Shown here: positions 4,081 through 41,994 of the stretch, piece after piece
How positions within the stretch are numbered: position 1 is the first letter of the stretch
Layout: the number at the start of each line of letters is the position of its first letter
DNA from: an uncultured Candidatus Saccharibacteria bacterium
GTDB taxonomy: Bacteria; Patescibacteriota; Minisyncoccia; Phycocordibacterales; GWA1-40-21
DNA: 64,000 nucleotides
Direction: 5' to 3'
Assembly: GCA_964567825.1 (NCBI GenBank)
Contig: CAZMNX010000002.1
Coordinates: 62,767 to 126,766, forward strand
Notes under the pieces: generated by a model
The model's input: the letters and a program-made list of their open reading frames with translations, nothing else
Told to the model about the DNA's origin: nothing
The model's database searches: none
Program-made: the position numbers and the translations under genes

Positions 4081-4965
4081 TTATACTATTAATGACTTAA
4101 GAAGAATAGAGGTCGCTTTCTTTTTCATATTTTCTGGTATGAACCTGAAAAATAAATCAGGGTCAATTAATTCTACCTCTAAAATTTCATAACTGGTGTT
4201 AAACCTTAAAAAATCAACTCTACATATATTAGGGAAGCCACCAAACTTCTTTAGGAGAAATACTTTTAATGTATCTACTTCTTTTTTTATAAACTTTGGT
4301 AAGTTGATAGACTTTATATAAACCGGATCTAATTTTTCACTAAAAATTCCCGGAAACCTCTTTACGCCATATAAGACTATACCGTCAATTATAACAACAG
4401 AAATTTCTCCAGTCAATATGTCTGGTCTATAGGGCTGTGCAATAAAATCGAGTTGTCTATTTTGTTGCAGTGAGGTGATAAGAGTTTTATTGTTTCCTGT
4501 CTCATCATATTTAAAAGTCAGATAACCGCTTTCTGAAATACGAGGCTTAATAACCAGCGTGTCTGTTTTCAATGTTTTTTTTGTTTGTAATACCATACCT
4601 CTAATCTCAGATACTTTTTTTGTACTTTTGAAATTAAAGAGCACTGTGGGGACTACGCTCATGTTTTTTAATTCATGTAAGTATTTATGCTTATCAATAT
4701 TCCAAAGGATAAAATCATAGTCGTTTATTAGTCTAATGTTCTTTTTCTTAAGCATCGATATTTTCTTCAAAAAATCTCGATAATGTAAATTATACCCCCA
4801 AATACTTTTTAAAAGTACCACATCAAAAGGTTTGGCTATTCTTACAGCATCTTTTAGAGTAACAATTTCGCATAAAAATCCCTTATTTCTATAGGCGTCA
4901 CGTATATAAGCATCTTCTAAGATTTTCCCTACATACTTTTCTGATGAGGCAATATATATTTTCAT
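4081..4965 (-). CDS. ATP-grasp family protein (RimK / glutathione-synthetase-like)
   Basis: LVIKPRISESGYL ATP-grasp loop, RVDFL and EVELID metal/ATP motifs; 294 aa. Confidence 0.55.
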   Translation of the reverse strand: MKIYIASSEKYVGKILEDAYIRDAYRNKGFLCEIVTLKDAVRIAKPFDVVLLKSIWGYNLHYRDFLKKISMLKKKNIRLINDYDFILWNIDKHKYLHELKNMSVVPTVLFNFKSTKKVSEIRGMVLQTKKTLKTDTLVIKPRISESGYLTFKYDETGNNKTLITSLQQNRQLDFIAQPYRPDILTGEISVVIIDGIVLYGVKRFPGIFSEKLDPVYIKSINLPKFIKKEVDTLKVFLLKKFGGFPNICRVDFLRFNTSYEILEVELIDPDLFFRFIPENMKKKATSILLKSLIV

Positions 4966-6587: not shown

Positions 6588-7627
6588 TACTCTACAATTA
6601 AATTTGGGGGAACATGTAGTTCTTCAAAAGTTAATTTATATTTGATAGTTTGTTTACCCATTAGAGATAATATAGTATTTGCAATATCTACTTTTGTCGG
6701 GTAGTAAGACTCAGTGAGTATTGTTGAGGTAGGTACTGGAACATCAGGACAAAAAAGTGAAACTGGAGCGTTCTTCAAATACATCAGGTGTTTTTCCGCA
6801 ACTTTTGCGATAACATCTGAGCCAACACTAAAAGCATGATTAGTGGTATCAATTGTGATAAGTCGACCAGTTTTTTTTACTGATTTAAAAATAGTTTCGT
6901 AATCTATCGGATTTATGGAAACAAGATCTATAAGTTCCACGTCAACATGACCACTAATCAACTCTAAAGCTTCATACGCCGCAATCAAACCATCCCCATA
7001 AGAAACAATTGTGAGATCCGCACCTTTTTTTACCACAACAGCTTTATCGAGTGGTTCATCATATAGTTCGGTTGGCACATCTTGTCTCAAGGAGAAAAGC
7101 CAGCGTGGTTCCAAAATGACCACAGGATTTTTATCACGGACTGCAGAGATAAGTAAACCCTTTGCCATACGTGGAGTAGAAGGAATCACAACTTTAAGAC
7201 CAAGTGCGTTTCCAAAAAGTGAATAGAGTGCTTGTGTATGTTGTGGGCCTTGGCCCCATTGTCGACCAATATTAATCCTAAATACAATAGGCACCGAATG
7301 TCCGCCGCCGAACATATAATTCCATTTTGCCGCTTGTGTAAATATCTGATCGGCTGCAAAGAGTGCGAACTCAACCCTACCATGATGCACAATGGGGTGA
7401 AGACCAGTTATCGCTGCACCGACAGCCATTCCCGTTACAGCATTTTCTGATTGTGGTGTTTCAATTATACGGGAAGGATATTTTTCCTTAAGTCCAGCTG
7501 TTGTTCCGTCTGCACCATTTTTATATGAAACTTCTAGACCCATAACAATAACATCCTGATCTACCTCCATCATTTGGTCTGTAGCTTCTTTAATTGCTTC
7601 AGTATATGTAATAATTCTATTAGACAT
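6587..7627 (-). CDS. 2-oxoacid (acetoin/pyruvate-type) dehydrogenase E1 component beta subunit
   Basis: Transketolase-like pyrimidine-binding and C-terminal domains (GLEVSYKNGADGTT, IPSTPRMAKGLL). The ORF-track start at 7714 overlaps E1 alpha by 95 nt. The start is likely the ATG at 7627, giving the coupling overlap ATGTCTAA with the E1 alpha stop. Confidence 0.85.
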   Translation of the reverse strand: MSNRIITYTEAIKEATDQMMEVDQDVIVMGLEVSYKNGADGTTAGLKEKYPSRIIETPQSENAVTGMAVGAAITGLHPIVHHGRVEFALFAADQIFTQAAKWNYMFGGGHSVPIVFRINIGRQWGQGPQHTQALYSLFGNALGLKVVIPSTPRMAKGLLISAVRDKNPVVILEPRWLFSLRQDVPTELYDEPLDKAVVVKKGADLTIVSYGDGLIAAYEALELISGHVDVELIDLVSINPIDYETIFKSVKKTGRLITIDTTNHAFSVGSDVIAKVAEKHLMYLKNAPVSLFCPDVPVPTSTILTESYYPTKVDIANTILSLMGKQTIKYKLTFEELHVPPNLIVE

Positions 7628-28277: not shown

Positions 28278-29279
28278 TCAACCCTTCACGCCGTAACCCA
28301 CCGACGGCTTCCCAAACTTGGGGAAGACCGGAATGAACTCCACCTCGCCCACACCGAGCGGGATGCTCACGGCACCATCTTGGTCCGTGCTCAACGTGAT
28401 CCAGTCATCGGTCTTGCCGACTCGATACTGAACTGCCACCGCTTTTTCGTTTTCGGTGGTGACCATCCGGATCTTGACCGTGAGCGCCTTGGTCAATTGC
28501 AGAATGACGAGCGGCACTTCCCCGTAGCCGTTCTGACTTTGGGGATTGACGAACACGTAGGTCGAGTTCGTCGGCGCCGTGATCATTCCGTTGACGCTGA
28601 AGTTCACGCCTGCGCTCACATTTTCGAGCGGAAGCTCCATCATCTGGTCGAGCGCGAAGATGAAGGTCCCCGACTGGCCCGTTGCCTGATCGTAGGTGTG
28701 CACCACCGTCTCGCCCGACTGACCAGTATACTGGGTTTCGAACCAGACGAGATCCTCGTCATAGCTCGTTTCCAGGTACGCGGGGGGTCCGACGATGTTG
28801 CCCTGCGCATCGCGACGGATGACGTTCGCGGAGGTGACGTTGTCGAAGGCGATTGGAATACGCCAGTACAGGTCGAGATGGGTGTTGAGCGCCCAGCTCG
28901 GTACCTGCCAACCAGTCGGGGTGTTTTCGAGACCCGTATAGTTGCCGCCCATGAAGAGCGGATACCCTTCCTCCGACAGGAGCGTGGTCATCACGCTCAC
29001 CTTGTCCACCGCGGGGTCAGCCACGATGAAGTTCACCGTGTTCGTCCGCAGCGACGCGGCCAAGCGATCGAAGTTGCCCTCCGCATCGTAGGCCATGTAG
29101 CTCGACATCATCACCCCACCGTCGGAGTTCACACTCGACATCGCACGCACGACCGATTGCCGGGCGTAGGCGATGAGGGCCGGCTTGCTTGTGCCGGGCC
29201 ACAGAAGATTCGTCGCGAGGCTCACCTTGGCCGCGAGGGCCAGGACCGTCATCACCATAACCACCTTGATCATCTTCAT
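28278..29279 (-). CDS. secreted protein of unknown function (333 aa), GC-rich cassette 4
   Basis: SD GAGGAAAA; signal peptide MKMIKVVMVMTVLALAAKVSLA. Terminator downstream. The overlapping 384-aa plus-strand ORF is rejected as an antisense shadow ORF. Confidence 0.55.
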   Translation of the reverse strand: MKMIKVVMVMTVLALAAKVSLATNLLWPGTSKPALIAYARQSVVRAMSSVNSDGGVMMSSYMAYDAEGNFDRLAASLRTNTVNFIVADPAVDKVSVMTTLLSEEGYPLFMGGNYTGLENTPTGWQVPSWALNTHLDLYWRIPIAFDNVTSANVIRRDAQGNIVGPPAYLETSYDEDLVWFETQYTGQSGETVVHTYDQATGQSGTFIFALDQMMELPLENVSAGVNFSVNGMITAPTNSTYVFVNPQSQNGYGEVPLVILQLTKALTVKIRMVTTENEKAVAVQYRVGKTDDWITLSTDQDGAVSIPLGVGEVEFIPVFPKFGKPSVGYGVKG

Positions 29280-29337: not shown

Positions 29338-29640
29338 TCACAGACTGAACTTCAAGTCCTCCATGTTCATCGTCACCATCGTTCCTTTGTTGCTGGTCGC
29401 CTTCTGGCTACCACCAACCTCCTCCTTCGCCCTCGGTGTCTCCACCGGCGGCGTGTTGGTCTCGGTCGTTTCGATCACTGCGGCCGGCACGGGCTTAACC
29501 CCCACCGATTCTGCCTTCACCGGCGGCGTTTCAGATCGCCGCAAGATGAATACGCAAAGAGCGACTGTCAACCCCAAGGTCAACAGCCACGCGAATGGAC
29601 CTGGTCCAGGCCGACGATCACGATCTTGAATGTTTGCCAT
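29338..29640 (-). CDS. membrane-anchored Pro/Thr-rich protein (100 aa), GC-rich cassette 4
   Basis: SD AGGAGAG 7 nt before ATG; cytoplasmic basic N-terminus, one TM (FAWLLTLGLTVALCVFIL), Pro-rich tail; first gene of a three-gene minus-strand unit. Confidence 0.4.
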   Translation of the reverse strand: MANIQDRDRRPGPGPFAWLLTLGLTVALCVFILRRSETPPVKAESVGVKPVPAAVIETTETNTPPVETPRAKEEVGGSQKATSNKGTMVTMNMEDLKFSL

Positions 29641-31342: not shown

Positions 31343-31364
31343 AAAAAACCGCCCTTTAGGCGGC
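31343..31364 (-). terminator. intrinsic terminator (GGCCGCC-taaag-GGCGG + T6 on minus strand) after rpsP
   Basis: Short GC stem followed by TTTTTT, 5 nt beyond the rpsP stop. Confidence 0.5.
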
Positions 31365-31736
31365 CTTTACTTCTTCTTTCTTTTCTTCGGCTTTTGGCGC
31401 TTCAGCCTTAGGGGCCTCGGCAGCCTTTTTTTCCTCTTCAGTTAGTTCTTTCTTGATTGGGCGTTTCTTTGGTAAAGCATTTACTTTTTTACCGGTAATA
31501 ATTTTCTTGGAAATTAAAAGGTTGCGCATAGTATCAGAAAGTTGAGCACCCTTTGAGATCCAATACTTCACGCGATCAGCGTCCACATTACTATTATTTT
31601 TGGCCTTGCGAGTATCGTGGTTTCCTAGGACCTCTAAAGTCTGGCCACTCTTTGGACCGCGCTTAGAATCCACTAAAACCACACGAAAAGTTGGTTCGTG
31701 CACTCGTCCTACGCGTTGTAATCGAATCATTAACAT
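31356..31736 (-). CDS. rpsP: 30S ribosomal protein S16 with Lys/Ala-rich C-terminal tail
   Basis: MIRLQRVGRVHEPTFRVVLVDSKRGPKSG matches the S16 N-terminal signature. Confidence 0.9.
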   Translation of the reverse strand: MLMIRLQRVGRVHEPTFRVVLVDSKRGPKSGQTLEVLGNHDTRKAKNNSNVDADRVKYWISKGAQLSDTMRNLLISKKIITGKKVNALPKKRPIKKELTEEEKKAAEAPKAEAPKAEEKKEEVKAA

Positions 31737-31773
31737 AGGTGGTATCTTAGCCTAGATTATAAAAATAGTCAAC

Positions 31774-32676
31774 TTAAATCCATTTGGATGAGTCCGGCAT
31801 CAAATCCCCATCTAACGAAAGAATATTCCTGGATTTAAGTTCCTCGACAAGAAGTAAAAAGTTATTATTGTACTTCGGCATATGGGCAACGCCTGAGCCA
31901 AGGGTGTCTGAATACAGCTCGAAATTAAATGAGGAGGACATGCTTCTAATAAAGGCCAGGAAAGAATCGGCCTTGGAAGACAAGATAAATTTAATTACCC
32001 TCATATTTGTTGCAAAGTGTCCGGTTAAAATTATCTCCTTAATACCGTCAAGATTCTTGACCCAGGCGTTATTCATGACACTCTCAATCTCCGGCCCGAC
32101 GTTTGATTTATCCGACTCTAGGGATCCAATATATAAACAATAAAGCTCCTTAACTCCTTGGGTCTTTAAAAAATCCTCAGCCTTCTTTTCAATTGAGCCG
32201 GTAATACGTAAATCATCTATAAATATTACTCTTTTGCCCTTCAAGAGATCTGGAATACTATACAAATGTATATCATCATTCTGTGAAAATCGACTAACTT
32301 TATCAAGTGTACCATAATCCCCCTCAACTAATGTATCATTAAATATTGGCAAAATAGGAATTGGCATTTTACCCAAAAGATCAAGATGATTATTAATTGT
32401 AGTTTGAAAATACTTTGCGATCACCGCTGCACCCTTCGGCACATGTTTATATGGAGCAGTTACAATAACAAAATCTGTTTGATTTTCTGACTCAAGGAAC
32501 AGACTACCGTAGGTTTTTATAAACAACCTAGCCAAATCAACCCCGTATTGAGCGCCGACAATCGTATCACCATACTTAAATCGACTGTATAGTTTTATAT
32601 CAAAAATAGAGCCGTTGATAGTCTGAATGTCGCTGGCAATTACCTTTATTGGATATAGTGATAAATTTTTTTTCAT
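31774..32676 (-). CDS. phosphoribosyltransferase (PRTase)-like domain protein, paralog 1
   Basis: PRPP-binding-like motif GKRVIFIDDLRITGS; paralogous to 33370-34281 (shared YSRFKYG, VIVTAPY/LVLTTSPY, GKxVIxxDDxRITG, PEIExxMN blocks). Confidence 0.55.
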   Translation of the reverse strand: MKKNLSLYPIKVIASDIQTINGSIFDIKLYSRFKYGDTIVGAQYGVDLARLFIKTYGSLFLESENQTDFVIVTAPYKHVPKGAAVIAKYFQTTINNHLDLLGKMPIPILPIFNDTLVEGDYGTLDKVSRFSQNDDIHLYSIPDLLKGKRVIFIDDLRITGSIEKKAEDFLKTQGVKELYCLYIGSLESDKSNVGPEIESVMNNAWVKNLDGIKEIILTGHFATNMRVIKFILSSKADSFLAFIRSMSSSFNFELYSDTLGSGVAHMPKYNNNFLLLVEELKSRNILSLDGDLMPDSSKWI

Positions 32677-33365
32677 TAGATTAATTTAATCAAATCAGAA
32701 ATTCTACTAATAGATTTTACGTCGTTACCTGAATTTGCACTGTCGATGTCAAACAATTGAGCCTGACATCCAGCTTCAATTGCCCCGCGATAATCCGTGA
32801 CAAAATTATTACCAACATGTAATATCTCCCCGGCTTTAATTCCGGCAATTTGTGCTAATGACTCAAACATTCTCGGGTCGGGTTTTCCCGCACCTACTTC
32901 ATCTGAAAATACAGTGTAATCAATAATGTCTAAAAGACCCAAACTCGAAAGCGCATTTCTCATTGTTTTTCCAATAATAAAGCCCGTATTACTCAGTAGA
33001 GCAATCTTGAACTTTTTTGCTTTAATTTCTTTTAAAGTCTCCGGCAAATCCTTCTCGATTAATAGTGGCAGATTCTCTAGAAAAACTGATTCGAAGATAC
33101 TCTTCACTTTATTAATAATCTCCAAATTAGCCTTTTTGCCTGTTAAGCGCTCAATCAAGGTAATTATTCGAACGTCACCAGATAAATCCTGGCCAGTTGT
33201 TTCGGTAATTGTTTCTAGTTCTCGGCCAATGTCCCTGGCGGCATTAGCAATTAACTTTTCATCTAGACTTAATAGTTCTGATAAAAGTTTTGATCTTTTT
33301 ATTTTATTCTCAGGATTACCAACTAAAATAGTGTCCCAGACGTCTAAACTTATAAGTTTAATCAT
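32676..33365 (-). CDS. HAD-superfamily hydrolase (phosphatase)
   Basis: Motif I LDVWDT (DxDx[TV]), motif IV GNNFVTDYRGAIEAGCQA (GDxxxD-like), Rossmannoid layout. Confidence 0.7.
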   Translation of the reverse strand: MIKLISLDVWDTILVGNPENKIKRSKLLSELLSLDEKLIANAARDIGRELETITETTGQDLSGDVRIITLIERLTGKKANLEIINKVKSIFESVFLENLPLLIEKDLPETLKEIKAKKFKIALLSNTGFIIGKTMRNALSSLGLLDIIDYTVFSDEVGAGKPDPRMFESLAQIAGIKAGEILHVGNNFVTDYRGAIEAGCQAQLFDIDSANSGNDVKSISRISDLIKLI

Positions 33366-33369
33366 AATT

Positions 33370-34281
33370 TTAAAAGAAAATAGAAACAGCCGCTTGCCGT
33401 AATAAGAAAGTAAATTGCGAAAATCTTGAAGCTAGGCTAATCTTATTTTCTCTCAACTTTATTTCGTCACGAACCAATGAAAAACCGGCTTGATATTTAT
33501 CCATAAAGCCATAGCCATCATTCACAGATGAAATATAAAGATCAGACAAAACATCGTCGGATATCTTTTTTAGGAAGCTTTTAAGTTCTAGCAAATTACC
33601 CCAAGAGAGAACGAAGCGGCAAACTCGAGCGTTTAAAATATATTCCTCAGGATTTCTCATCAAAGCTGAGAGTCGATCGAGGGAATTAATCTTGGTATGA
33701 TTCATTTTATTTTCAATCTCTGGATCTTTTTTACCAGTTTTAACATCAATTACATAAAGAAAAATTATTTCGGCAACGCCAGATTTTTCCAAATAACTAA
33801 TTGTCTTTTTTTCATGAGCACCAGTAATTCTCGAGTCTTCCACAAGAATAACAGTCTTGCCCTTAACCGAATCTTGATCAACAGAAAGAGAATCTTTCTT
33901 CATATTTATTTCTCGCTCTTTAGCACTCAGTTTTCCAAAGTCACAGGACGGAGCTGATGAACGATTAATTTTTACAAACGGTAAGGCGTTATGGCCACTC
34001 TCTAAAAGCAATTCGTTCAGGAAATAGTGAACATTAACCGCCAATGAGTGAGCTGAGGGTGGAGTATGCCAATATGGTGAAGTTGTTAAAACTAAATTAT
34101 CTTTATTTAAAGTAAGATTTTTAAAAGAGTAAACTTTTAAAAATTCCGCAGCCATCTTTTTTGCAAACTTAATAACCGTTGGCTTGTAACCATACTTAAA
34201 AGTGCTATATTCCTCGAGGTTTAAAAACTCTTTCTTTGTTGATTTATCGAGGGTATAAGCTGAAATTCGTTTGATATTCAT
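33370..34281 (-). CDS. phosphoribosyltransferase (PRTase)-like domain protein, paralog 2
   Basis: GKTVILVEDSRITGAHEKK PRTase motif; first gene downstream of the promoter at 34332-34359. Confidence 0.55.
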   Translation of the reverse strand: MNIKRISAYTLDKSTKKEFLNLEEYSTFKYGYKPTVIKFAKKMAAEFLKVYSFKNLTLNKDNLVLTTSPYWHTPPSAHSLAVNVHYFLNELLLESGHNALPFVKINRSSAPSCDFGKLSAKEREINMKKDSLSVDQDSVKGKTVILVEDSRITGAHEKKTISYLEKSGVAEIIFLYVIDVKTGKKDPEIENKMNHTKINSLDRLSALMRNPEEYILNARVCRFVLSWGNLLELKSFLKKISDDVLSDLYISSVNDGYGFMDKYQAGFSLVRDEIKLRENKISLASRFSQFTFLLRQAAVSIFF

Positions 34282-34331
34282 TATTATTCTGCTACTAGTA
34301 AATCCGTTAAAATCTGGACTTAATGCTGGGT

Positions 34332-34359
34332 ATTATAGCAAATCTATTGGATTTGTCAA
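34332..34359 (-). promoter_or_regulatory. sigma70-type promoter TTGACA-N16-TATAAT (extended -10 TGcTATAAT) driving the PRTase-HAD-PRTase operon; copy A of a duplicated 33-nt element
   Basis: Minus strand cTTGACAaatccaatagatttgcTATAATaccc. The plus-strand 33-mer GGGTATTATAGCAAATCTATTGGATTTGTCAAG (34328-34360) recurs with 2 mismatches at 39497-39529. Confidence 0.6.
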
Positions 34360-34390
34360 GCCTAAATTGACACAATATGGAAATTTAGGC
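34360..34390. promoter_or_regulatory. perfect 9-bp inverted repeat GCCTAAATT-N13-AATTTAGGC abutting the -35 of the promoter above (candidate regulator binding site)
   Basis: Inverted repeat lies immediately upstream (on minus strand) of the -35 hexamer; not followed by a U-tract so unlikely to be a terminator. Confidence 0.35.
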
Positions 34391-34497
34391 AAATAAAGAG
34401 ACCCCCGACCCTCACCGAAACTTGCGTTCAGATGAGAGAAGGGGGCCTCGGGGTTGAATGTACTCTTCCCAGCCTCAGGCTGGGGGTTGGGGCTCGG

Positions 34498-35298
34498 TTA
34501 GGCCACCGCCGGAGCGGGGGCCGCATTGAGCCACTTCACGAGCTCGTCGCCGATGAGCTCCGCATTGAGCTCGTCGTCGGGCTTGCTGGTGAAGGCCGGC
34601 AGGTCGCGAATGATGACCAGGCCGGTATTGTCGAACATGTCGGCGATCTTCTGCAGGAACTTGAACTGGCCGCCCTGGTTCGAGTACGCCAGGAAGAGGA
34701 AGTAGACCTCGTCCCCCCGGCCCTGACTCGCGCGGAGCACCTGCTCCACCCGACCCTCGTCGCTGCAGTCACCGTCGGTGACAAACAGAACCAAGGAGCG
34801 TTCCTTCTTGACCGCCGCCGGCGCCGACGCCGACTGCTGATTCCCGCCACCACCGAAGGTACGGGAGAAGAATCCGCTCTTCCTGGGCGCCGCCGGCTGA
34901 TTGCCGTTCGGCAGCCAGCCGAAGTGACGCAGGTTGGCTTCCAGCACATAGCTGTAGTCCGTCCCGCCGCGGTAGCCCGGCACCTTCTCGATGATTTCGC
35001 GCTTGATGTAGCCCTCAACGTTCGCCGGAGTCACCGTCCCGACATGGTGAACGCGCTGTTCACCGTTCGAGAAGGTGAAGACGTCGATCTCGCCGTTGGC
35101 GTCGAACGTGATCCCCCACGGGATCAGGCGCGTCATCAGATCGTTCGTCATCCCGTCACGATGCTCGTCATCGAACGAGCCGGACACGTCCATGTCCATC
35201 ACGACTTGGGCGCGCAGCCGGCTCAGATCCACACCGAGCTTCGTCAACGTCAAACGCAGACTTTCCGCGGACTTCTGAATGTTCAACTTGATGGCCAT
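34498..35298 (-). CDS. von Willebrand factor A domain protein (TerY-like)
   Basis: MIDAS DMDVSGS and downstream VLFVTDGD vWA motifs; SD AAGGAGTG; GC-rich; 2-nt gap to upstream gene (operon). Confidence 0.65.
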   Translation of the reverse strand: MAIKLNIQKSAESLRLTLTKLGVDLSRLRAQVVMDMDVSGSFDDEHRDGMTNDLMTRLIPWGITFDANGEIDVFTFSNGEQRVHHVGTVTPANVEGYIKREIIEKVPGYRGGTDYSYVLEANLRHFGWLPNGNQPAAPRKSGFFSRTFGGGGNQQSASAPAAVKKERSLVLFVTDGDCSDEGRVEQVLRASQGRGDEVYFLFLAYSNQGGQFKFLQKIADMFDNTGLVIIRDLPAFTSKPDDELNAELIGDELVKWLNAAPAPAVA

Positions 35299-35300
35299 GG

Positions 35301-36389
35301 TTAGGCACTCCTTAATTTTCCGATCACTGCACTGACTAGGTCACCCACCTCACTGACTTGGGTGACACTTGGTTTGTTTCCTCTCCGAGCCAAAAGCTGC
35401 AAAGCAGCCAGGCTGTTGAGCATGGTCGGCACCGTTACCAGTGCCAAGTCTTGCGCAACTTCAATGAGTTGAAGAGGTTGTTCGATTTGTAACTTACGGA
35501 CCGAACTACCGCCGACAATCTCAGCCGTCGTAGCTGTGAGACTCACCACCCGCCCCGAAAGGCGACCAGCAACGTCTCGCTTCCCAATTGATTCCAGGTG
35601 TTCAGCGATGTGCGCGCCAGCCAAAGCCAACGCATTAACCTCATCACCAACCTCTAGGGTGCGGGTCGAGATCAACTCGATTTGCCCCCTCAAGGCCAGC
35701 AACTTCGGAACATCATCACTGATGATCTTCGCAATCTGATCAATCTCCTCTAGTGCCCTTTCGAGCTCTTCGAGTGAATCGACCTCTGCTGAAGATTTCT
35801 TGATCGCTCGAGCGAGGAAACCCTCCCCACCTTTTTGAGCGAACACCTTGTCCAGCTTGATGGAACCTAGGATCTCGATCAGGCGTCCGACACGTCGGCT
35901 AACCTGATTAAGTGTCTCGGAACGCGACAAAGCGAGGACCTCCGACATCAGCCCGCTGTACTGCTTTTGCACTTCCGTGCCCCACATCACAGCGCTCTGC
36001 TCCGTAGCCCTTTCCGCAATGAAGCTTTCGACCAAGTGCACCACGCGCTCGATCGTTTCCACCTTCTGGGTTTTCCCCTGCAAATTGGCACTGGTGATCG
36101 GAATCCTCTTCCGAACTTCACCGATCCCAATCACAGAGGGTTTACCTACCGGCACGATTGCCGGCTTGACCACCGCCTGAACCGTATTCGACGGTATCGC
36201 GGTTGGTTTCAAGTTTTCCACCTTCCCCGGCGTTCCAGGAATGGCGGTCGGCTTGGTGGCCTGCCCTTGCGGACAAACTCCCATCACCGTAGGCTTGATG
36301 GACCCGCCGCCCGACGGAATAACCGTCGGACGACGAATCACTGTTGCTTCTCCCGGCACGAAGCCGGAAGTTTTCTCTCCTCCCGGCAC
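35301..36389 (-). CDS. coiled-coil protein, TelA-like / toxic-anion-resistance-associated (tentative)
   Basis: GTG start with strong SD AAGGAGG; Pro/Thr-rich N-terminus followed by long helical repeats; sits between TerD and the vWA gene. Confidence 0.4.
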   Translation of the reverse strand: MPGGEKTSGFVPGEATVIRRPTVIPSGGGSIKPTVMGVCPQGQATKPTAIPGTPGKVENLKPTAIPSNTVQAVVKPAIVPVGKPSVIGIGEVRKRIPITSANLQGKTQKVETIERVVHLVESFIAERATEQSAVMWGTEVQKQYSGLMSEVLALSRSETLNQVSRRVGRLIEILGSIKLDKVFAQKGGEGFLARAIKKSSAEVDSLEELERALEEIDQIAKIISDDVPKLLALRGQIELISTRTLEVGDEVNALALAGAHIAEHLESIGKRDVAGRLSGRVVSLTATTAEIVGGSSVRKLQIEQPLQLIEVAQDLALVTVPTMLNSLAALQLLARRGNKPSVTQVSEVGDLVSAVIGKLRSA

Positions 36390-36424
36390 TGATGCCTCCT
36401 TTTGTTGGCGTCGTTCTCAGACGC

Positions 36425-37042
36425 TTAAGAGAAGAAGCCGAGGATCGTGTTGAAATCCCCGACGAAACCGCTGCCGACGGCCGCGTAATCCCAGCCGCCC
36501 GTGGCGTTGCGGATCATGCTGCCCATCTGCACGCAGTTGAATGCTCCGAACTCATTCGTGAGCCCGAAGCTGCCGAGAACCTTCCCGGCTTCGTCCTTGA
36601 TCGTAATCGAGGCCTCCTTGACCTCGGTGAACGTGACATTGCGACCCGACTTGTCGTAGATCGTGACGAAGATCGGGATCTCGTTGACTTCCGGCGCAAC
36701 CCGCGACGTGTCAATCGTGATCACTTCATCGACGCCCTGGGACCGACCGTCGCGCTTGTCGCCGGAGTGAAGCAGAGCCCCACACGGCGTACCAAACGAA
36801 CCGTCGGCATTGCGCTTCAAAGCGCCGCCCACCGTGTTCAGGTTGAAAACGCTGAGCACCTTTTCGAGCGTATCGATCTTGGCGCCGCTGCCGTCATTGA
36901 CGCACAGCAACGCATTGGCATCGAGATCGTGGGGCGAATCCCAGGCCAACTCGGCCATGAACTTCCCACCCTTCGACAGGTTGAGGGACAACTTCATCCC
37001 CGCAACCCCATCCTTCTTCAACGGCAAGGACAACTTACTCAT
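36425..37042 (-). CDS. terD: TerD-family stress protein
   Basis: LSLNLSKGGKF...AWDSPHDLDANALL...GALLHSGDKRDG...DEVITID...PIFVTIYD...GGWDYAAVGSG match TerD/TerZ/TerE signatures. The start is likely the ATG at 37042 (SD GGAGAAG), not the ORF-track start at 37105. Confidence 0.8.
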   Translation of the reverse strand: MSKLSLPLKKDGVAGMKLSLNLSKGGKFMAELAWDSPHDLDANALLCVNDGSGAKIDTLEKVLSVFNLNTVGGALKRNADGSFGTPCGALLHSGDKRDGRSQGVDEVITIDTSRVAPEVNEIPIFVTIYDKSGRNVTFTEVKEASITIKDEAGKVLGSFGLTNEFGAFNCVQMGSMIRNATGGWDYAAVGSGFVGDFNTILGFFS

Positions 37043-37121
37043 GACTGCTTCTCCATTTCTGCCTCTCGGCATCGAACTTGCAGCCCTTAACGGGCCGCCG
37101 AACATTTACCACACACAATCA

Positions 37122-38363
37122 TCACAACTGCGCAACTTCCGGCTGACTGGCCGAAAGCTCTGCCAAAACCGCGCGCGCCTTTTGAAAGCGCCCTTTGGCC
37201 TCGGCAAACTTCTTCTGCGTCTCCGCCCTTGCGAGCGAAACCGCTTGATGGATTTCCTCCGTCTCGCGAATGATGCCTTCGATCTGCGCGACTTGCGCCA
37301 GGCGATTCTCGCCCGGTGCCACCGCAGCTGTGACCGACGCATCACGTACGATTTGGCCGCGCGCCCGAATCAAGGTCTGATCCAGACTAGCGGCACTCGA
37401 CGAAAGATTCTGCAGGCTCTTCACCCGCAGGGCGGAATTTACGCTGAGCAGGGTCATCTTGATACTGGCGAAGCGGCTCGAGGCCGTCGTCAAGGTCTCA
37501 CCCAGCGTCGAAACGCCGGCGACCTGAATATCGCGAATGACTTGCTGATCAGCCGGCAACCGCGTGTACACACCCTCCAAGGCCAGTGCCCGGCTCTGAA
37601 GGAACTGGAGTTTGATGTCCAGCTCTTCGATTTCCGAACGAGCCTCAAGGCTGGTGTTTCCACTCAGCGCCTGCTTCCGCTCAGCCACCTGCTGCGTCGC
37701 CTTGGCCACGAAGGCCTCGGCTACCGCCGCAATGAGAGCGAAGTTCTGCCAGTGCACCCGATAGGCCTGCTTCAGCTGTTCGACATTCTGAAGTTCCGCA
37801 ATCAAGCGGGTCACCTCATCCTGCAGTTCAGCCTGAAGCCTGGCCAATTCCTCCGAGAGATCCTTGGTCTTCCCGGAGAGACGGACACGCACTTTTTCGA
37901 GCGTTTCCTGAAGCAGGGTCGCGGGGCTTTTCCCATTAAGCCGGCCGATCAGGCGATTGCCCAAACTCGGCTTGGCCTTCTGGGCCTCCTCGATAATCCC
38001 CTCCAGGTCGGCATCCTTGACTTCCTTCTGCAGGCGGTCAAAGAGCGCAAAAACGGACGCTGCCGTGTTCTTGTCCAGTTTGGCCAAGAAGCCGTCGAGC
38101 GTGGTATTCAAACCAGCCTCGGCCTCCGAACCCAACAGGACAATCTCCTGCCCGTGCATGGTCAGAATGTTCAAACTGGCGAGCATTTGCCCTGCCGGCT
38201 TGAGCTGTTCCTCCGAGATGACAATGGTGCCACCCGAAAAAGGAACTGCTGACGACGCACGAACGAGAGATGTAGATCCAGCCTCGACCACTTCCACCGG
38301 CGCCGTCGTAACGGCACCGAGAACGGTCGGCTTAAAACCCACATTTACTGTCATATAATTCAC
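37122..38363 (-). CDS. TelA-like toxic anion resistance protein (coiled-coil)
   Basis: 413-aa all-helical protein with TelA-like size and heptad repeats, in a TerC-TelA-TerD arrangement resembling known Ter operons; start GTG 38363 or ATG 38354 after SD AGGAGTG. Confidence 0.5.
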   Translation of the reverse strand: MNYMTVNVGFKPTVLGAVTTAPVEVVEAGSTSLVRASSAVPFSGGTIVISEEQLKPAGQMLASLNILTMHGQEIVLLGSEAEAGLNTTLDGFLAKLDKNTAASVFALFDRLQKEVKDADLEGIIEEAQKAKPSLGNRLIGRLNGKSPATLLQETLEKVRVRLSGKTKDLSEELARLQAELQDEVTRLIAELQNVEQLKQAYRVHWQNFALIAAVAEAFVAKATQQVAERKQALSGNTSLEARSEIEELDIKLQFLQSRALALEGVYTRLPADQQVIRDIQVAGVSTLGETLTTASSRFASIKMTLLSVNSALRVKSLQNLSSSAASLDQTLIRARGQIVRDASVTAAVAPGENRLAQVAQIEGIIRETEEIHQAVSLARAETQKKFAEAKGRFQKARAVLAELSASQPEVAQL

Positions 38364-38558
38364 ACTCCTAACTTTTATCTCGCTATTTACTTGTCAAAGG
38401 ACCACAGATCTTGTCTTTTTCCTATGACTCCTCTGCCAAGTATCGTTCGCTTTCACAAGCAAAACCACAATACCTGGGTAGAGGAGGCAAGATTCACCGA
38501 CTTGCCTCAGGAAAATTTCGGGGAGCTTACGCTCCGTTGTTGATGTCAATCGGGTTAG

Positions 38559-39425
38559 TTAGAGTGCCGTCGTCGAGCGCAAATCGCGCAAGGCAACGAA
38601 CAGCTTACGCGCGCCACGAGCCGACATAGTCAGCGGCAGCAGCACGTAGTACAGGACGCGATCCAGGACCTCAAGAATTCGGACACCAACCTTGACGGCG
38701 GGCCCGAGAACTTTTTGGACGATGGTCAATTCACTGTACGCGATGCTTGTCGCGGTGATGATCAGAATGCCGATCATCTTTTGCCAGCTTTCGATCTGGC
38801 AGTGTACACCGCACATTTCGAAACCGAGCTCGGTCAGCAGGATCAGTCCCACGAAACCCACCAGCATGAACGCTGTGTATTTGAGCACGGGGAACCGCTC
38901 GATCAGGCGGATGCAAATTCCCGCCACGAACCGCAGCGCCAAGATGCCGATGAAGACACCGGTGCAGATAACCCACAGACGTTTGTCCAGGGCCACGGCT
39001 GCCACGACGTTATCAATCGACAGCGAGAGATCCATGATCTCGATCTGGATGATCGTGAGCAGGAACCCCTTAACCAGCTTCTTGCCGGTCACACCGTCGA
39101 TCTCTTCTTCGGTCTTCTTGGTCAGATGCTCCGCCGCGAGGTAGAGCAAATAGGCCGCGCCGACGAGCTTCAACCAGTAATTCTGGCTGATGTACGCTGC
39201 CAGTCCGAGACAGATGCCCCGGAAAAGGTACGCGCCGATGATCCCATACCGCAAGGCTTTCTTCTGCTGATGTTTCGGCAAAGCCGAAGCCATGGCCGCG
39301 ATGGCCATAGCGTTATCGACCGAGAGCAAGCCCTCGATGATAATCAGCGAAAAGATGATCGGCAGGGCCGAAACCAACTCAGCCTGACCCGGAATATGGG
39401 CCAAAATGGCATTGATCAGATTCAA
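38559..39425 (-). CDS. terC: TerC-family integral membrane protein
   Basis: TTG start preceded by SD AAGAGGA. Duplicated LSVDNAMAIAAMA and LSIDNVVAAVALD TerC motifs. Several TM segments (about 7). Confidence 0.85.
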   Translation of the reverse strand: MNLINAILAHIPGQAELVSALPIIFSLIIIEGLLSVDNAMAIAAMASALPKHQQKKALRYGIIGAYLFRGICLGLAAYISQNYWLKLVGAAYLLYLAAEHLTKKTEEEIDGVTGKKLVKGFLLTIIQIEIMDLSLSIDNVVAAVALDKRLWVICTGVFIGILALRFVAGICIRLIERFPVLKYTAFMLVGFVGLILLTELGFEMCGVHCQIESWQKMIGILIITATSIAYSELTIVQKVLGPAVKVGVRILEVLDRVLYYVLLPLTMSARGARKLFVALRDLRSTTAL

Positions 39426-39499
39426 GCTTTCCTCTTTCTACCGTTGTTTTGCAACGGATTTTAGACACACAACAATGTCAACTTCACTTTCTAACGGGT

Positions 39500-39527
39500 A
39501 TTATAGCAAATCTATTGCGTTTGTCAA
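39500..39527 (-). promoter_or_regulatory. sigma70-type promoter TTGACA-N16-TATAAT driving terC; copy B of the duplicated 33-nt element
   Basis: Minus strand cTTGACAaacgcaatagatttgcTATAATaccc; the ~75-nt 5'UTR contains hairpin CCGTTG-caaaa-CAACGG before the SD. Confidence 0.65.
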
Positions 39528-39560
39528 GTATAATAGTGACAAAGGAGAAATGTGGGTTAT

Positions 39561-39594
39561 AAAAAAAACGTCTCGCGGGTGGGCCCGCGAGACG
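39561..39594 (-). terminator. intrinsic terminator (CGTCTCGCGGG-ccca-CCCGCGAGACG + T8 on minus strand)
   Basis: Perfect 11-bp stem followed by TTTTTTTT, 28 nt after the DUF4342 stop and just upstream of the terC promoter. Confidence 0.75.
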
Positions 39595-39622
39595 ACAGAA
39601 GCCAGAAGAGCGACGCGGGTCG

Positions 39623-39877
39623 TTACTTCTTCTTCTCAACCGAGATGGTGCAGTCACCGGTGACTGCGACCAGAGCACCGACCGCCGACAGCACCGGCGC
39701 CAAGAGCACACCGGCCATGCCCGCGTAGAGCGGGAAGGTGGCGACCACCTTGCGCGCGCCGTTGCGAACCACCACCTTGCGGACGTTGCCCTCACGAATA
39801 AGATTCCGCAGCGCTTCGAGCGCTTCGGCACCCCGCTTCGTGATTTCCTCAACCACCGTTTTCTTCTTACTCGGCAT
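39623..39877 (-). CDS. DUF4342-like small protein (84 aa)
   Basis: EGNVRKVVVRNGARKVVATFPLYAGMAGVLLAPVLSAVGALVAV resembles the DUF4342 pattern (NVRRLIIR...LEIPLTAG..AGG.L.LFAPVLAALGA); SD GGAAAGGGAAAG. Confidence 0.55.
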   Translation of the reverse strand: MPSKKKTVVEEITKRGAEALEALRNLIREGNVRKVVVRNGARKVVATFPLYAGMAGVLLAPVLSAVGALVAVTGDCTISVEKKK

Positions 39878-39949
39878 CTTTCCCTTTCCAGACCGCTGTT
39901 TAGATCAAGCCCCATGCCTAATCGACAACAGTCTAAGACCAAACTGGTA

Positions 39950-39981
39950 TTATTATAAGCACAATTATTTTAAAAAGTCAA
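39950..39981 (-). promoter_or_regulatory. sigma70-type promoter (TTGACT-N18-TATAAT) for the DUF4342 gene at the right edge of the GC-rich Ter island
   Basis: Minus strand gTTGACTttttaaaataattgtgcTTATAATaatacc. Confidence 0.5.
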
Positions 39982-40023
39982 CAACATCTATACATCTCCC
40001 CTATTTTCTGCTAGAATCACTAA

Positions 40024-41994
40024 GTGAAAGAAAGATACAGAAAACAAGGCAGAAAGGTCCAAAATTCTCCTTCCAAAAAGCCGGAAAAAACTTTAACCGG
40101 AGTCATCAGCGTCAACAGTAAGGGTGTTGGCTATTTTAAGGTGGAAAATGAAAAGATTGATGTGGAAATTCAAACCGCAGATTTAAACAAAGCTTTAAAT
40201 GGCGACACCGTAGTGGTAGCCATTAACGGAAAAAGCCAGCGTGGCCGACCGGCCGGAAAAGTTCTAGAGATAAAAAATCGCGCCAAGAGAAACTTTGCTG
40301 GAGTTCTGCGTGAGGAAAAAGGTAAATTGATCTTGGTACCCGATGATAAGAAAATGTATGCCAATATTTCTATTACCAAAAAAATGGGAAAAGTTGGCGA
40401 CAAGGTTTTGGTTAAAATTACCAAATGGGAAAAAAGTGCCGCTGGCCCGGAAGGTGAAATTATTAAAATACTAGGTAAACATGGCGAGCATAATGCCGAA
40501 ATGCTTTCAATTGTTTTAGAACGCGGTTTTGAGACTGAATTTTCGGAAGCAGTAGAAAAAGAAGCCGAAAAGATCGAGCAAACTGAAAAACCGATTCCCG
40601 CTGCTGAGATTGCTAAAAGAAAAGATTTCCGCCAGACCACCACCTTTACTATTGATCCCAAAACCGCCAAAGACTTTGACGATGCTATTTCGTTTAAAAA
40701 ATTGCCAAACGGCAACTTTGAAATCGGCGTGCATATTGCCGATGTTTCCCACTATGTTCGGGAGGGTACCAATTTGGACAAAGAAGCGTTGAAAAGAGAA
40801 TTTTCAGTTTATATGGTGGATCGTACCGTGCCCATGTTACCAGAAACTTTATCCAACGATATTTGTAGTTTAAATCCAAACGAAGATCGACTCACCTTCT
40901 CCGCAGTTTTTGAATTAGACAAAAATGGTAAAATCTTTAACCGCTGGTTTGGTAAAACAGTGATCAATTCGAATAAAAGATTCACTTATGAAGAGGCTCA
41001 GGAGACTTTGAATAAAAAGACTGGCCAGTATTTTGAGGAATTAAATACTTTAAATGAAATTTCCAAAAAATTAAGAGCCGAAAAAACCAGACACGGCGCT
41101 ATTGATTTCGAACAAGATGAAGTGGTTTTTGATTTAGATGAGAACAATAAACCAGTTCGCATTTATAAAAAGCAAAGATTAGATACTCACAAATTAGTGG
41201 AGGAATATATGCTTTTAGCCAATAAAGAAGTGGCGGAGTTTATTTTCAAGGCCTATAAAAGAGTAAATTCCGACAGCCCTTTCGTTTATCGCATTCACGA
41301 TTTCCCAAATCAGGAAAAAATCGCTCAACTGGCTATTTTCGTGAAGGCTTTAGGTTACAATTTACCGATTGATAAGAAAAACGGCGTAACCGGCAAAGAC
41401 TTGCAGGATTTATTCAGACAGATTGAAGGTAAAGATAATGAGGGCATGATTAAAACCGCGGCGGTGCGTTCCATGGCCAAAGCTATTTATTCCACCAAAA
41501 ATATTGGCCACTTTGGCTTGGCTTTTGAATTTTATACTCACTTCACTTCCCCGATTCGCCGCTATCCCGACTTGCTAGTTCACCGCTTATTATTCAAACA
41601 TCTAAACGATCAGAAATTACCAAAAAGTGAGTGGATTAAATATGAAAAGATTTCCCTGCTTGCCACTGAGCAAGAAGTAAAAGCGGCTGAAGCGGAGCGT
41701 GATTCGAAAAAATATAAACAAATAGAATATATGAGCGAGCGGATTGGCCAAACCTTCGATGGCATCATTTCTGGTATTACCGAATGGGGCATTTATATTG
41801 AAGAAAAAGAAACTCGATCCGAGGGCATGATTAAAATTCGCGATTTAGGAAATGACTATTTCGTCTTGGATCAAAAAAACTATTGCTTAGTTGGTGAAAA
41901 AACCAAACAAAAATTCTCGCTGGGTGATAAAGTAAAATTCAAAATCACGGGTGCTGATTTGGAGAGAAAGACGCTGGATTTAGTGCTAGTGTAA
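40024..41994 (+). CDS. rnr: ribonuclease R (RNB-family 3'-5' exoribonuclease with S1 domain)
   Basis: N-terminal OB folds, RNB catalytic core (TFTIDPKTAKDFDDAISF, HFGLAFEFYTHFTSPIRRYPDLLVHR), C-terminal S1-like. Confidence 0.85.
   Translation: MKERYRKQGRKVQNSPSKKPEKTLTGVISVNSKGVGYFKVENEKIDVEIQTADLNKALNGDTVVVAINGKSQRGRPAGKVLEIKNRAKRNFAGVLREEKGKLILVPDDKKMYANISITKKMGKVGDKVLVKITKWEKSAAGPEGEIIKILGKHGEHNAEMLSIVLERGFETEFSEAVEKEAEKIEQTEKPIPAAEIAKRKDFRQTTTFTIDPKTAKDFDDAISFKKLPNGNFEIGVHIADVSHYVREGTNLDKEALKREFSVYMVDRTVPMLPETLSNDICSLNPNEDRLTFSAVFELDKNGKIFNRWFGKTVINSNKRFTYEEAQETLNKKTGQYFEELNTLNEISKKLRAEKTRHGAIDFEQDEVVFDLDENNKPVRIYKKQRLDTHKLVEEYMLLANKEVAEFIFKAYKRVNSDSPFVYRIHDFPNQEKIAQLAIFVKALGYNLPIDKKNGVTGKDLQDLFRQIEGKDNEGMIKTAAVRSMAKAIYSTKNIGHFGLAFEFYTHFTSPIRRYPDLLVHRLLFKHLNDQKLPKSEWIKYEKISLLATEQEVKAAEAERDSKKYKQIEYMSERIGQTFDGIISGITEWGIYIEEKETRSEGMIKIRDLGNDYFVLDQKNYCLVGEKTKQKFSLGDKVKFKITGADLERKTLDLVLV

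Follow-up and report, generated by a model that had tools for sequence, protein, structure and literature searches.

In a 64-kb stretch of DNA from an uncultured Candidatus Saccharibacteria bacterium (64,000 nt; GenBank assembly GCA_964567825.1, contig CAZMNX010000002.1, positions 62,767 to 126,766; the whole stretch is referred to below as the window), a 33-nt element occurs twice, once at the head of each of the two operons of a Ter-type gene cluster. The two copies, A and B, are predicted to represent one strong housekeeping promoter of the sigma70, extended -10 type, and we consider it probable that this promoter has recently been copied or homogenised, with matched expression of the two halves of the cluster as the outcome.

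Read on the plus strand, copy A is GGGTATTATAGCAAATCTATTGGATTTGTCAAG (34328-34360) and copy B the variant GGGTATTATAGCAAATCTATTGCGTTTGTCAAG (39496-39528), with 5168 bp between them from start to start. The initial annotation had placed copy A at these positions and copy B 1 nt too far along, at 39497-39529; its count of two differing positions was accurate. The copies are identical at 31/33 positions, and the differences are two adjacent substitutions (GA to CG at positions 23-24 of the 33-mer), both of which fall in the promoter spacer. The elements of the two promoters are as follows.

34328..34360, minus strand: promoter copy A, with -35 TTGACA at 34354-34359, the 16-nt spacer AATCCAATAGATTTGC, -10 TATAAT at 34332-34337, TG at -15/-14, then ACCC
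39496..39528, minus strand: promoter copy B, with -35 TTGACA at 39522-39527, the spacer AACGCAATAGATTTGC, -10 TATAAT at 39500-39505, then ACCC

Both copies thus read CTTGACA, 16 nt, TATAAT and ACCC on the minus strand, with TGC directly before the -10 hexamer. This is the architecture that had been proposed initially, and it is perfect in each copy (TTGACA-16 nt-TGcTATAAT), with 12/12 hexamer matches and a spacing within the 16–18 nt of sigma70-type promoters. Ten sites in the window have at most one mismatch to TTGACA/TATAAT, five of them perfect where 0.07 would be expected. The spacers of the other eight near-consensus promoters are unrelated to those of A and B, which have 14 of 16 spacer bases and the following ACCC in common; accordingly the alignment score of A with B is 20, whereas no other pair of window promoters exceeds 9 and the median is -1. 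No third copy of the 33-mer was found at up to three mismatches within the window, none of 100 dinucleotide-preserving shuffles yielded a 33-mer match, the spacer motif has no additional window copy above chance, and a 26-mer from the repeat gave 0 matches in JGI metagenome contigs. The claim that the resemblance is not a coincidence is borne out by these controls, and the case that had been named as its refutation, a generic strong-promoter consensus, can be excluded within the window. A dispersed repeat resembling a repetitive extragenic palindrome or a miniature inverted-repeat transposable element was also considered and rejected, since the element occurs just twice in the 64 kb, each time at the head of an operon.

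Outside some 33–38 nt, the identity between the surroundings of A and B drops sharply to background, as judged by aligning the 240 nt that surround each copy with one another and by a repeat finder. An independently assembled Logan contig (L001; related loci are given L numbers throughout) contains the copy A flanks with 100% identity over 9683 bp, and a contig of GCA_041445565.1, compared by gene order only, repeats the order of genes at copy B (rnr fragment, DUF4342, TerC, X, TerD). Because the junctions recur in other assemblies, and the repeats are shorter than reads, an assembly artefact was ruled out as the source of this layout.

Both copies are noncoding, lie in intergenic regions of 197–216 nt and are co-oriented with the downstream gene. 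Directly upstream of each is a terminator-like hairpin, and an operon starts 50–75 nt downstream. Because the surrounding order is terminator, copy, operon start, each copy is placed exactly where the promoter of an independent transcription unit belongs. On the minus strand from 39877 to 31774 the order is DUF4342, terminator, copy B, terC, a 195-nt intergenic region, X, terD, the TelA-like gene, vWA, a hairpin with a U-tract, a small hairpin, copy A, phosphoribosyltransferase (PRTase), HAD, PRTase and rpsP. The individual features are listed here in the direction of transcription.

39569..39594, minus strand: canonical intrinsic terminator of the DUF4342 gene, with an 11-bp stem and T8, 40 nt before the copy B -35
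39426-39495, minus strand: terC 5' leader of about 65–70 nt with a short CCGUUGcaaaaCAACGG hairpin
38559..39425, minus strand: terC, a YkoY-type TerC membrane protein and first gene after promoter B, TTG start preceded by AGAGGA (Pfam TerC 6e-48; TIGR03716 YkoY match)
37122..38363, minus strand: gene X, an open reading frame (ORF) of 413 aa with no Pfam or NCBIfam family, its position kept in all related clusters
36425..37105, minus strand: terD-family gene (Pfam TerD 4.5e-21)
35301..36389, minus strand: TelA-like gene (weak Pfam TelA match, 2.4e-4, below the gathering score)
34498..35298, minus strand: vWA gene resembling the TerF C-terminus, last of the GC-rich unit (Pfam vWA-TerF-like 8e-20)
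34389..34449, minus strand: long GC-rich hairpin (34398-34449) then UCUUUAUUU, which probably closes the terC...vWA unit as its intrinsic terminator, immediately before promoter A (z = -4.7 in the 137-nt intergenic RNA)
34361..34389, minus strand: second hairpin or palindrome, GCCTAAATT-N11-AATTTAGGC, with 9-bp arms, abutting the copy A -35
33370..34281, minus strand: PRTase (ComF-like, PF15610), first gene after promoter A, its leader about 43 nt long (Pfam PRTase_3, 1.6e-34)
32676..33365, minus strand: HAD-family phosphatase (Pfam HAD 2.7e-16)
31774..32676, minus strand: second PRTase (PF15610), with rpsP 37 nt further on (Pfam PRTase_3, 7.7e-43)

Copy B has no counterpart of the palindrome at 34361-34389, which may serve as an additional operator or as another terminator-like hairpin. 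Similarity of X to TelA was not significant, so that X as a TelA paralogue was ruled out, and a phage origin was rejected, as 33000-41000 matched none of the phage records by megablast.

With this arrangement, copy B would start a transcript running through terC, a structured RNA, X, terD, the telA-like gene and vWA and ending at the terminator hairpin, and copy A, right after that terminator, would start a PRTase-HAD-PRTase transcript that may read on into rpsP. The terC...vWA unit would form the membrane or sensor half, and the PRTase unit the half that makes a "nucleoside-like metabolite", of one Ter-type stress-response cluster. The near-identity that includes the spacer would have come about by recent copying or homogenisation, through promoter duplication, promoter replacement or short-tract gene conversion, and its effect would be that both halves are transcribed with equal strength and equal response.

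The presence of TerC, TerD and vWA genes together with PRTase and HAD genes identifies the cluster as Ter-type, with TelA being only a weak match. In 2012 Anantharaman, Iyer and Aravind connected these gene families (PMID 23044854, as summarised in PMC8115787), and according to that summary a TerC-centred membrane complex and a PRTase/HAD pathway for a nucleoside-like metabolite were proposed. A literature search returned no paper mentioning tellurium resistance in Saccharibacteria. The eight-gene cluster is present in at least eight Candidatus Saccharibacteria lineages, and in six of them (L002/L010/L023, L003-5/9, L006/7, L008/18-20, L011 and L012) all eight genes are contiguous in the order PRT1-HAD-PRT2-TerC-X-TerD-TelA-like-vWA. 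The first PRTase has few homologues (11 protein clusters); an alignment-based PRTase search recovered five Saccharibacteria-type loci and three distant ones in genome contigs and one locus in metagenome contigs, and a scan of genome contigs for related loci with a single PRTase as query gave no match. Proteins of both halves are 35–62% identical to those of the window, and the cluster is therefore old. The initial annotation correctly saw that one copy precedes the PRTase operon and the other terC; the two operons are not unrelated but are the two halves of one conserved system, so that shared control of them is expected.

The order of the modules in the window (31774-39425) is swapped, with Ter followed by PRT rather than PRT followed by Ter as in the six lineages. 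L016/17, the closest relative by PRT1 (63% identity), share the swapped vWA-PRT1 junction; a 78-aa ORF between vWA and PRT1 in L016 was considered as a homologue of the window DUF4342 and ruled out for want of any similarity. In the closest relatives by TerC (L021, L022 and L028), terC is preceded by a non-PRT gene, either TrmB or an HD-domain gene. The genomic neighbourhood of the cluster is also a different one in each lineage, and this suggests that it moves as a unit.

In the relatives we denote the promoter of PRT1 as P1 and that of terC as P2; these were picked by their hexamers, so that some subjectivity remains in their assignment and in the permutation test given below. Sites of the TTGACA...TATAAT type are found upstream of PRT1 and/or terC in L002, L003, L006, L008, L011, L012, L016 and L028, and in L003, L008 and L011 no site other than these two promoters has at most one mismatch within 10–20 kb. 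Since PRT1 and terC of the relatives each carry a near-consensus promoter, the cluster is, by these predictions, habitually driven by two very strong promoters. The position of the promoters is kept, whereas the spacer is not. Spacers differ in every relative, including the closest (P1 of L016 is TTGACAAAAAAGATATATGGGTGTATAAT and P2 of L028 is TTGACAAGATATTTGTATATGCTATAAT), and between L002 and L023, which are 85% identical at the DNA level, the P1 spacer differs at 5 of 16 positions. Within L003, L006, L012 and L002 the P1 and P2 spacers are dissimilar. Across lineages nothing is conserved beyond TTGACAA and AT-richness, and TTGACAA occurs in unrelated promoters as well. In L003 (9947-10000), just 8 nt separate the end of the PRT1 promoter's -10 hexamer from the ATG, which suggests that the mRNA of this PRTase operon is leaderless or nearly so.

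The initial annotation had further proposed that an imperfect palindrome in the spacer acts as an operator. This did not hold up. The palindrome, GCAA-N5-TTGC, is present in copy B only, and a better one, CAAATC-N5-GATTTG, in copy A only; the two differences between the copies sit exactly in the palindrome arms and interconvert them. The non-hexamer positions common to A and B are not kept at the orthologous promoters of relatives, and no palindrome or spacer motif is conserved among them. A GTCA-N9/10-TGAC dyad overlapping the -35 hexamer occurs in both A and B and was dropped as it is not consistent in the relatives. A 22-mer resembling the -35 and spacer without a -10, TTGACAAAATCAATAGATTTGC, was found in two related IMG/VR phage contigs (L024 8290-8311 and L025 2806-2827) and is probably a coincidence.

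A candidate regulator is seen in a subclade of the relatives. A TrmB-family gene lies directly upstream of the first promoter in L002 (4863-5621) and L023 (2970-3725) and upstream of terC in L021 (89-850) and L022 (3-311), and it is 75% identical between L002 and L021, above the conservation of the cluster's own proteins. Both promoter regions hold GTCTAA...TTAGAC dyads, such as TGTCTAACTGTTATTAGACA, and these are conserved from L002 to L023 (L002 5640-5675, 8401-8425 and 8515-8535). TrmB and these dyads are likely to be a cluster-specific repressor and operator pair in that subclade. A tblastn search of the 64 kb with two TrmB proteins gave no TrmB homologue, the GTCTAA motif is absent from the 33-mer, and the window has a single TGTCTAA, in the terC leader (39461-39467). 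TrmB is thus a lead for a subclade and not evidence about the 33-mer.

The agreement of 14 of 16 spacer bases in the window, set against the quick drift of spacers in the relatives (5/16 between L002 and L023), points to a very recent common origin of A and B or to active homogenisation; both the recency and the mechanism of copying are inferred. The initial annotation had left a choice between a shared regulator and a recent duplication of the promoter, and it is the duplication that the fast-evolving spacers favour, although the two are not fully separable. Several points weigh against recent copying. Promoter activity at A and B is predicted from the DNA of an uncultured organism, the search for copies covers 64 kb of its genome, and the search for relatives yielded none that is close (above about 70% protein identity) and could date the copying event. 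For a conversion tract, a homology of 33 bp is about the shortest on which RecA-type recombination can act. In addition, L008 has a twin pair of its own, TTGACAAATTG-ATATATATAAGCTATAATAGTA and TTGACAAATTGCATATA-ATAAGCTATACTAGTA, matching at 30/33 with one insertion and one deletion and with a spacer unlike that of the window, and P1-P2 similarity is higher within genomes than across them (permutation p about 0.001, and 0.008 when the window is left out). The L008 pair and the permutation result hint that sameness is selected for and is not the outcome of one accident. They are also what would be seen if the spacer, perhaps together with ACCC, were an operator through which a dedicated regulator binds both promoters and switches both halves together, its identity being kept by selection and co-evolving in each lineage. 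This we regard as rather unlikely. It would account for an identity that spans the whole core promoter and stops at its edges, for the partly twin pair of L011, in which ATAGATAG follows the -35 in both promoters, and for the TrmB-family regulator that heads the cluster in three or four related lineages, where both promoter regions carry GTCTAA palindromes; perfect consensus promoters are, moreover, often held in check by repressors. Against it stand the lack of a cross-lineage motif beyond TTGACAA and AT-richness, the small palindromes that differ between A and B with both differences hitting the arms, the fast-evolving P1 spacer of L002 and L023, the dissimilar P1 and P2 spacers of four relatives, and a tblastn search of the 64 kb that returned no trmB or other regulator homologue, with GTCTAA missing from the 33-mer.

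The copies could instead be the direct-repeat scar of a rearrangement that placed terC...vWA upstream of the PRTase module, for example a Campbell-type single-crossover insertion of a circular promoter and Ter segment into the homologous promoter that precedes the PRTase genes. The repeats do bracket exactly one promoter and Ter module, homology ends sharply at their edges, the window order reverses that of six lineages and the context of the cluster varies throughout. Such an origin is nevertheless improbable. Because L016/17 are already swapped at 63% PRT1 identity and with a different spacer, the module swap is ancient relative to the identity of A and B; the gene order of L008 is canonical, so that a twin state is not simply a by-product of the swap; and there is no recombinase gene in or beside the segment. 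That the similarity is no more than the organism's generic strong-promoter consensus, or chance, is highly improbable. TTGACA, TGnTATAAT and AT-rich spacers are indeed generic, and 'TTGACAA' and 'TGCTATAAT' each recur in other window promoters, but the 14 spacer bases and the four downstream bases are common only to A and B, none of the 100 shuffles gave a match, and the spacer motif has no additional copy above chance. A more speculative proposal, which we consider unlikely, is that the two cluster promoters evolve in concert, alike within and different between genomes (in the window, in L008 and partly in L011), either through a lineage-specific factor that reads the spacer and couples the halves or as portable recombination sites for excision, swap and loss of modules. 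The PRT-Ter and Ter-PRT orders and the TrmB-terC junctions may be products of such promoter-by-promoter recombination.

The two halves of the cluster differ in GC content, as had been described initially and as composition and the GC content at third codon positions (GC3) confirm. GC3 is 0.61–0.85 in terC, X, terD, the telA-like gene, vWA and DUF4342 (34498-39877) and 0.30–0.41 in the PRTase and HAD genes and the housekeeping neighbours (31356-34281 and 40024-41994). The ORFs at 28278-29279 and 29338-29640 also have high GC3, and the intergenic DNA within the GC-rich half is AT-rich. Because the same contrast holds in the clusters of L002, L003 and L006, whose proteins are 35–62% identical, it is not a simple case of recent transfer that has yet to be ameliorated. 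No donor was found for the GC-rich half; recent transfer from Verrucomicrobia-like donors was ruled out, since their TerC proteins are 53–58% identical but solitary, with no donor cluster.

A conserved structured RNA lies in the terC-X intergenic region (38364-38558) at 38427-38514 on the minus strand, inside the transcript predicted to start at B. Its copies in the relatives are located at the following positions.

L003 13539-13614; L006 5696-5768; L008 7666-7740; L011 5557-5644; L012 13920-13999
L022 1607-1681 and 3661-3736; L002 9680-9756 and 11817-11893; L023 7799-7875 and 9927-10003; L028 2572-2611

The motif is built from a hairpin, GGGCAAG[UCCGUUAAU]CUUGCCC, followed by a 12-bp stem within a CUCU/AGAG helix and by a conserved GUUCGUUGACAACUUCAACCAC before the X start codon. 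Compensatory changes are seen in 15 of its 23 base pairs, and 91.7% of cells are paired compared with 37–58% in slid controls. The covariance model R1 found copies outside its building set, namely the second copy of L022 (67.7 bits) and the truncated one of L028; second copies in L002, L023 and L022 lie upstream of the TelA-like gene. A further "switch" helix, P4, was dropped as it is absent in L011 and L012. No Rfam family matches the motif. It is a candidate cis-regulatory leader of Ter genes, either a riboswitch or an attenuator, and its covariation supports a new motif; together with the GC3 contrast it is arguably of greater novelty than the repeat. With Rfam, the whole window, seven related loci and 34200-40100 (at E<=1) yielded only tRNAs, one SAM riboswitch in L008 and one chance match; no yybP-ykoY riboswitch was found in these scans before terC, although TerC is of the "riboswitch-switched YkoY" type (TIGR03716).

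The terC leader of relatives holds a long conserved hairpin, UUCGUUGGAGC...GCUCCAACGAAUCC in L011, L021 and L022 and GAUUUGUUAGAGC...CUCUAACAAAUC in L002 and L023, the two forms being compensatory variants (L011 about 4470-4640; L021 about 1150-1330; L022 about 560-700; L002 8560-8750; L023 about 6680-6870). This leader is about 99% identical between L002 and L023, as against 85% for coding DNA. The corresponding leader of the window (39426-39495) keeps just the short hairpin.

A bacterium of the candidate phyla radiation whose reduced genome encodes few regulators may link the two operons of a single system through the same very strong promoter, and copies A and B offer a concrete pair of sequences for promoter study in Saccharibacteria, where promoter architecture has been little studied. 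The context outweighs the repeat itself: the compact conserved cluster, the unreported leader RNA and the long-lived GC3 contrast provide an entry point to the function of Ter systems.

Compared with consensus sigma70 extended -10 promoters (TGnTATAAT), A and B are alike in their perfect hexamers, the TG at -15/-14, the AT-rich upstream DNA, the distance of 50–75 nt to the start codon and the location after a terminator. They differ in having a spacer of 16 nt instead of the optimal 17 and in being known from sequence, and a duplicated spacer is not a property of the class. With the reported Ter neighbourhoods (Anantharaman et al. 2012) the cluster has in common TerC, TerD, a TelA-like protein, a TerF-type vWA, two PF15610 PRTases and HAD, and the division into membrane-complex and biosynthetic units. 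It differs in being a compact set of eight genes without terZ/A/B/E, ATP-grasp or TerY-kinase/phosphatase genes, and in having the unclassified X and the leader RNA. Concerted evolution of repeated promoters, as in multi-copy operons whose promoters, such as rrn P1/P2, gene conversion keeps alike, likewise leaves paralogous promoters within a genome closer than orthologous ones between genomes; here, however, there are two copies, a tract of about 33 bp, downstream genes that are not paralogues and no documented conversion event. Similarly to attL/attR, short direct repeats bracket a compositionally distinct segment of 5.2 kb. An integrative element was nevertheless rejected. Between the repeats and next to them lie ter genes, DUF4342, PRTase and RNase R, with neither an integrase nor a tRNA target; the repeat itself looks like a functional promoter, GC-rich DNA continues past copy B into DUF4342, and relatives have the same GC contrast without any bracketing. 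Copies A and B are ordinary members of the sigma70 class in a recognisable Ter-type cluster, slightly unusual in the duplicated spacer and in the recurrence of twin promoters in a second lineage (L008), and such twins are a real but fairly ordinary way to express two operons together.

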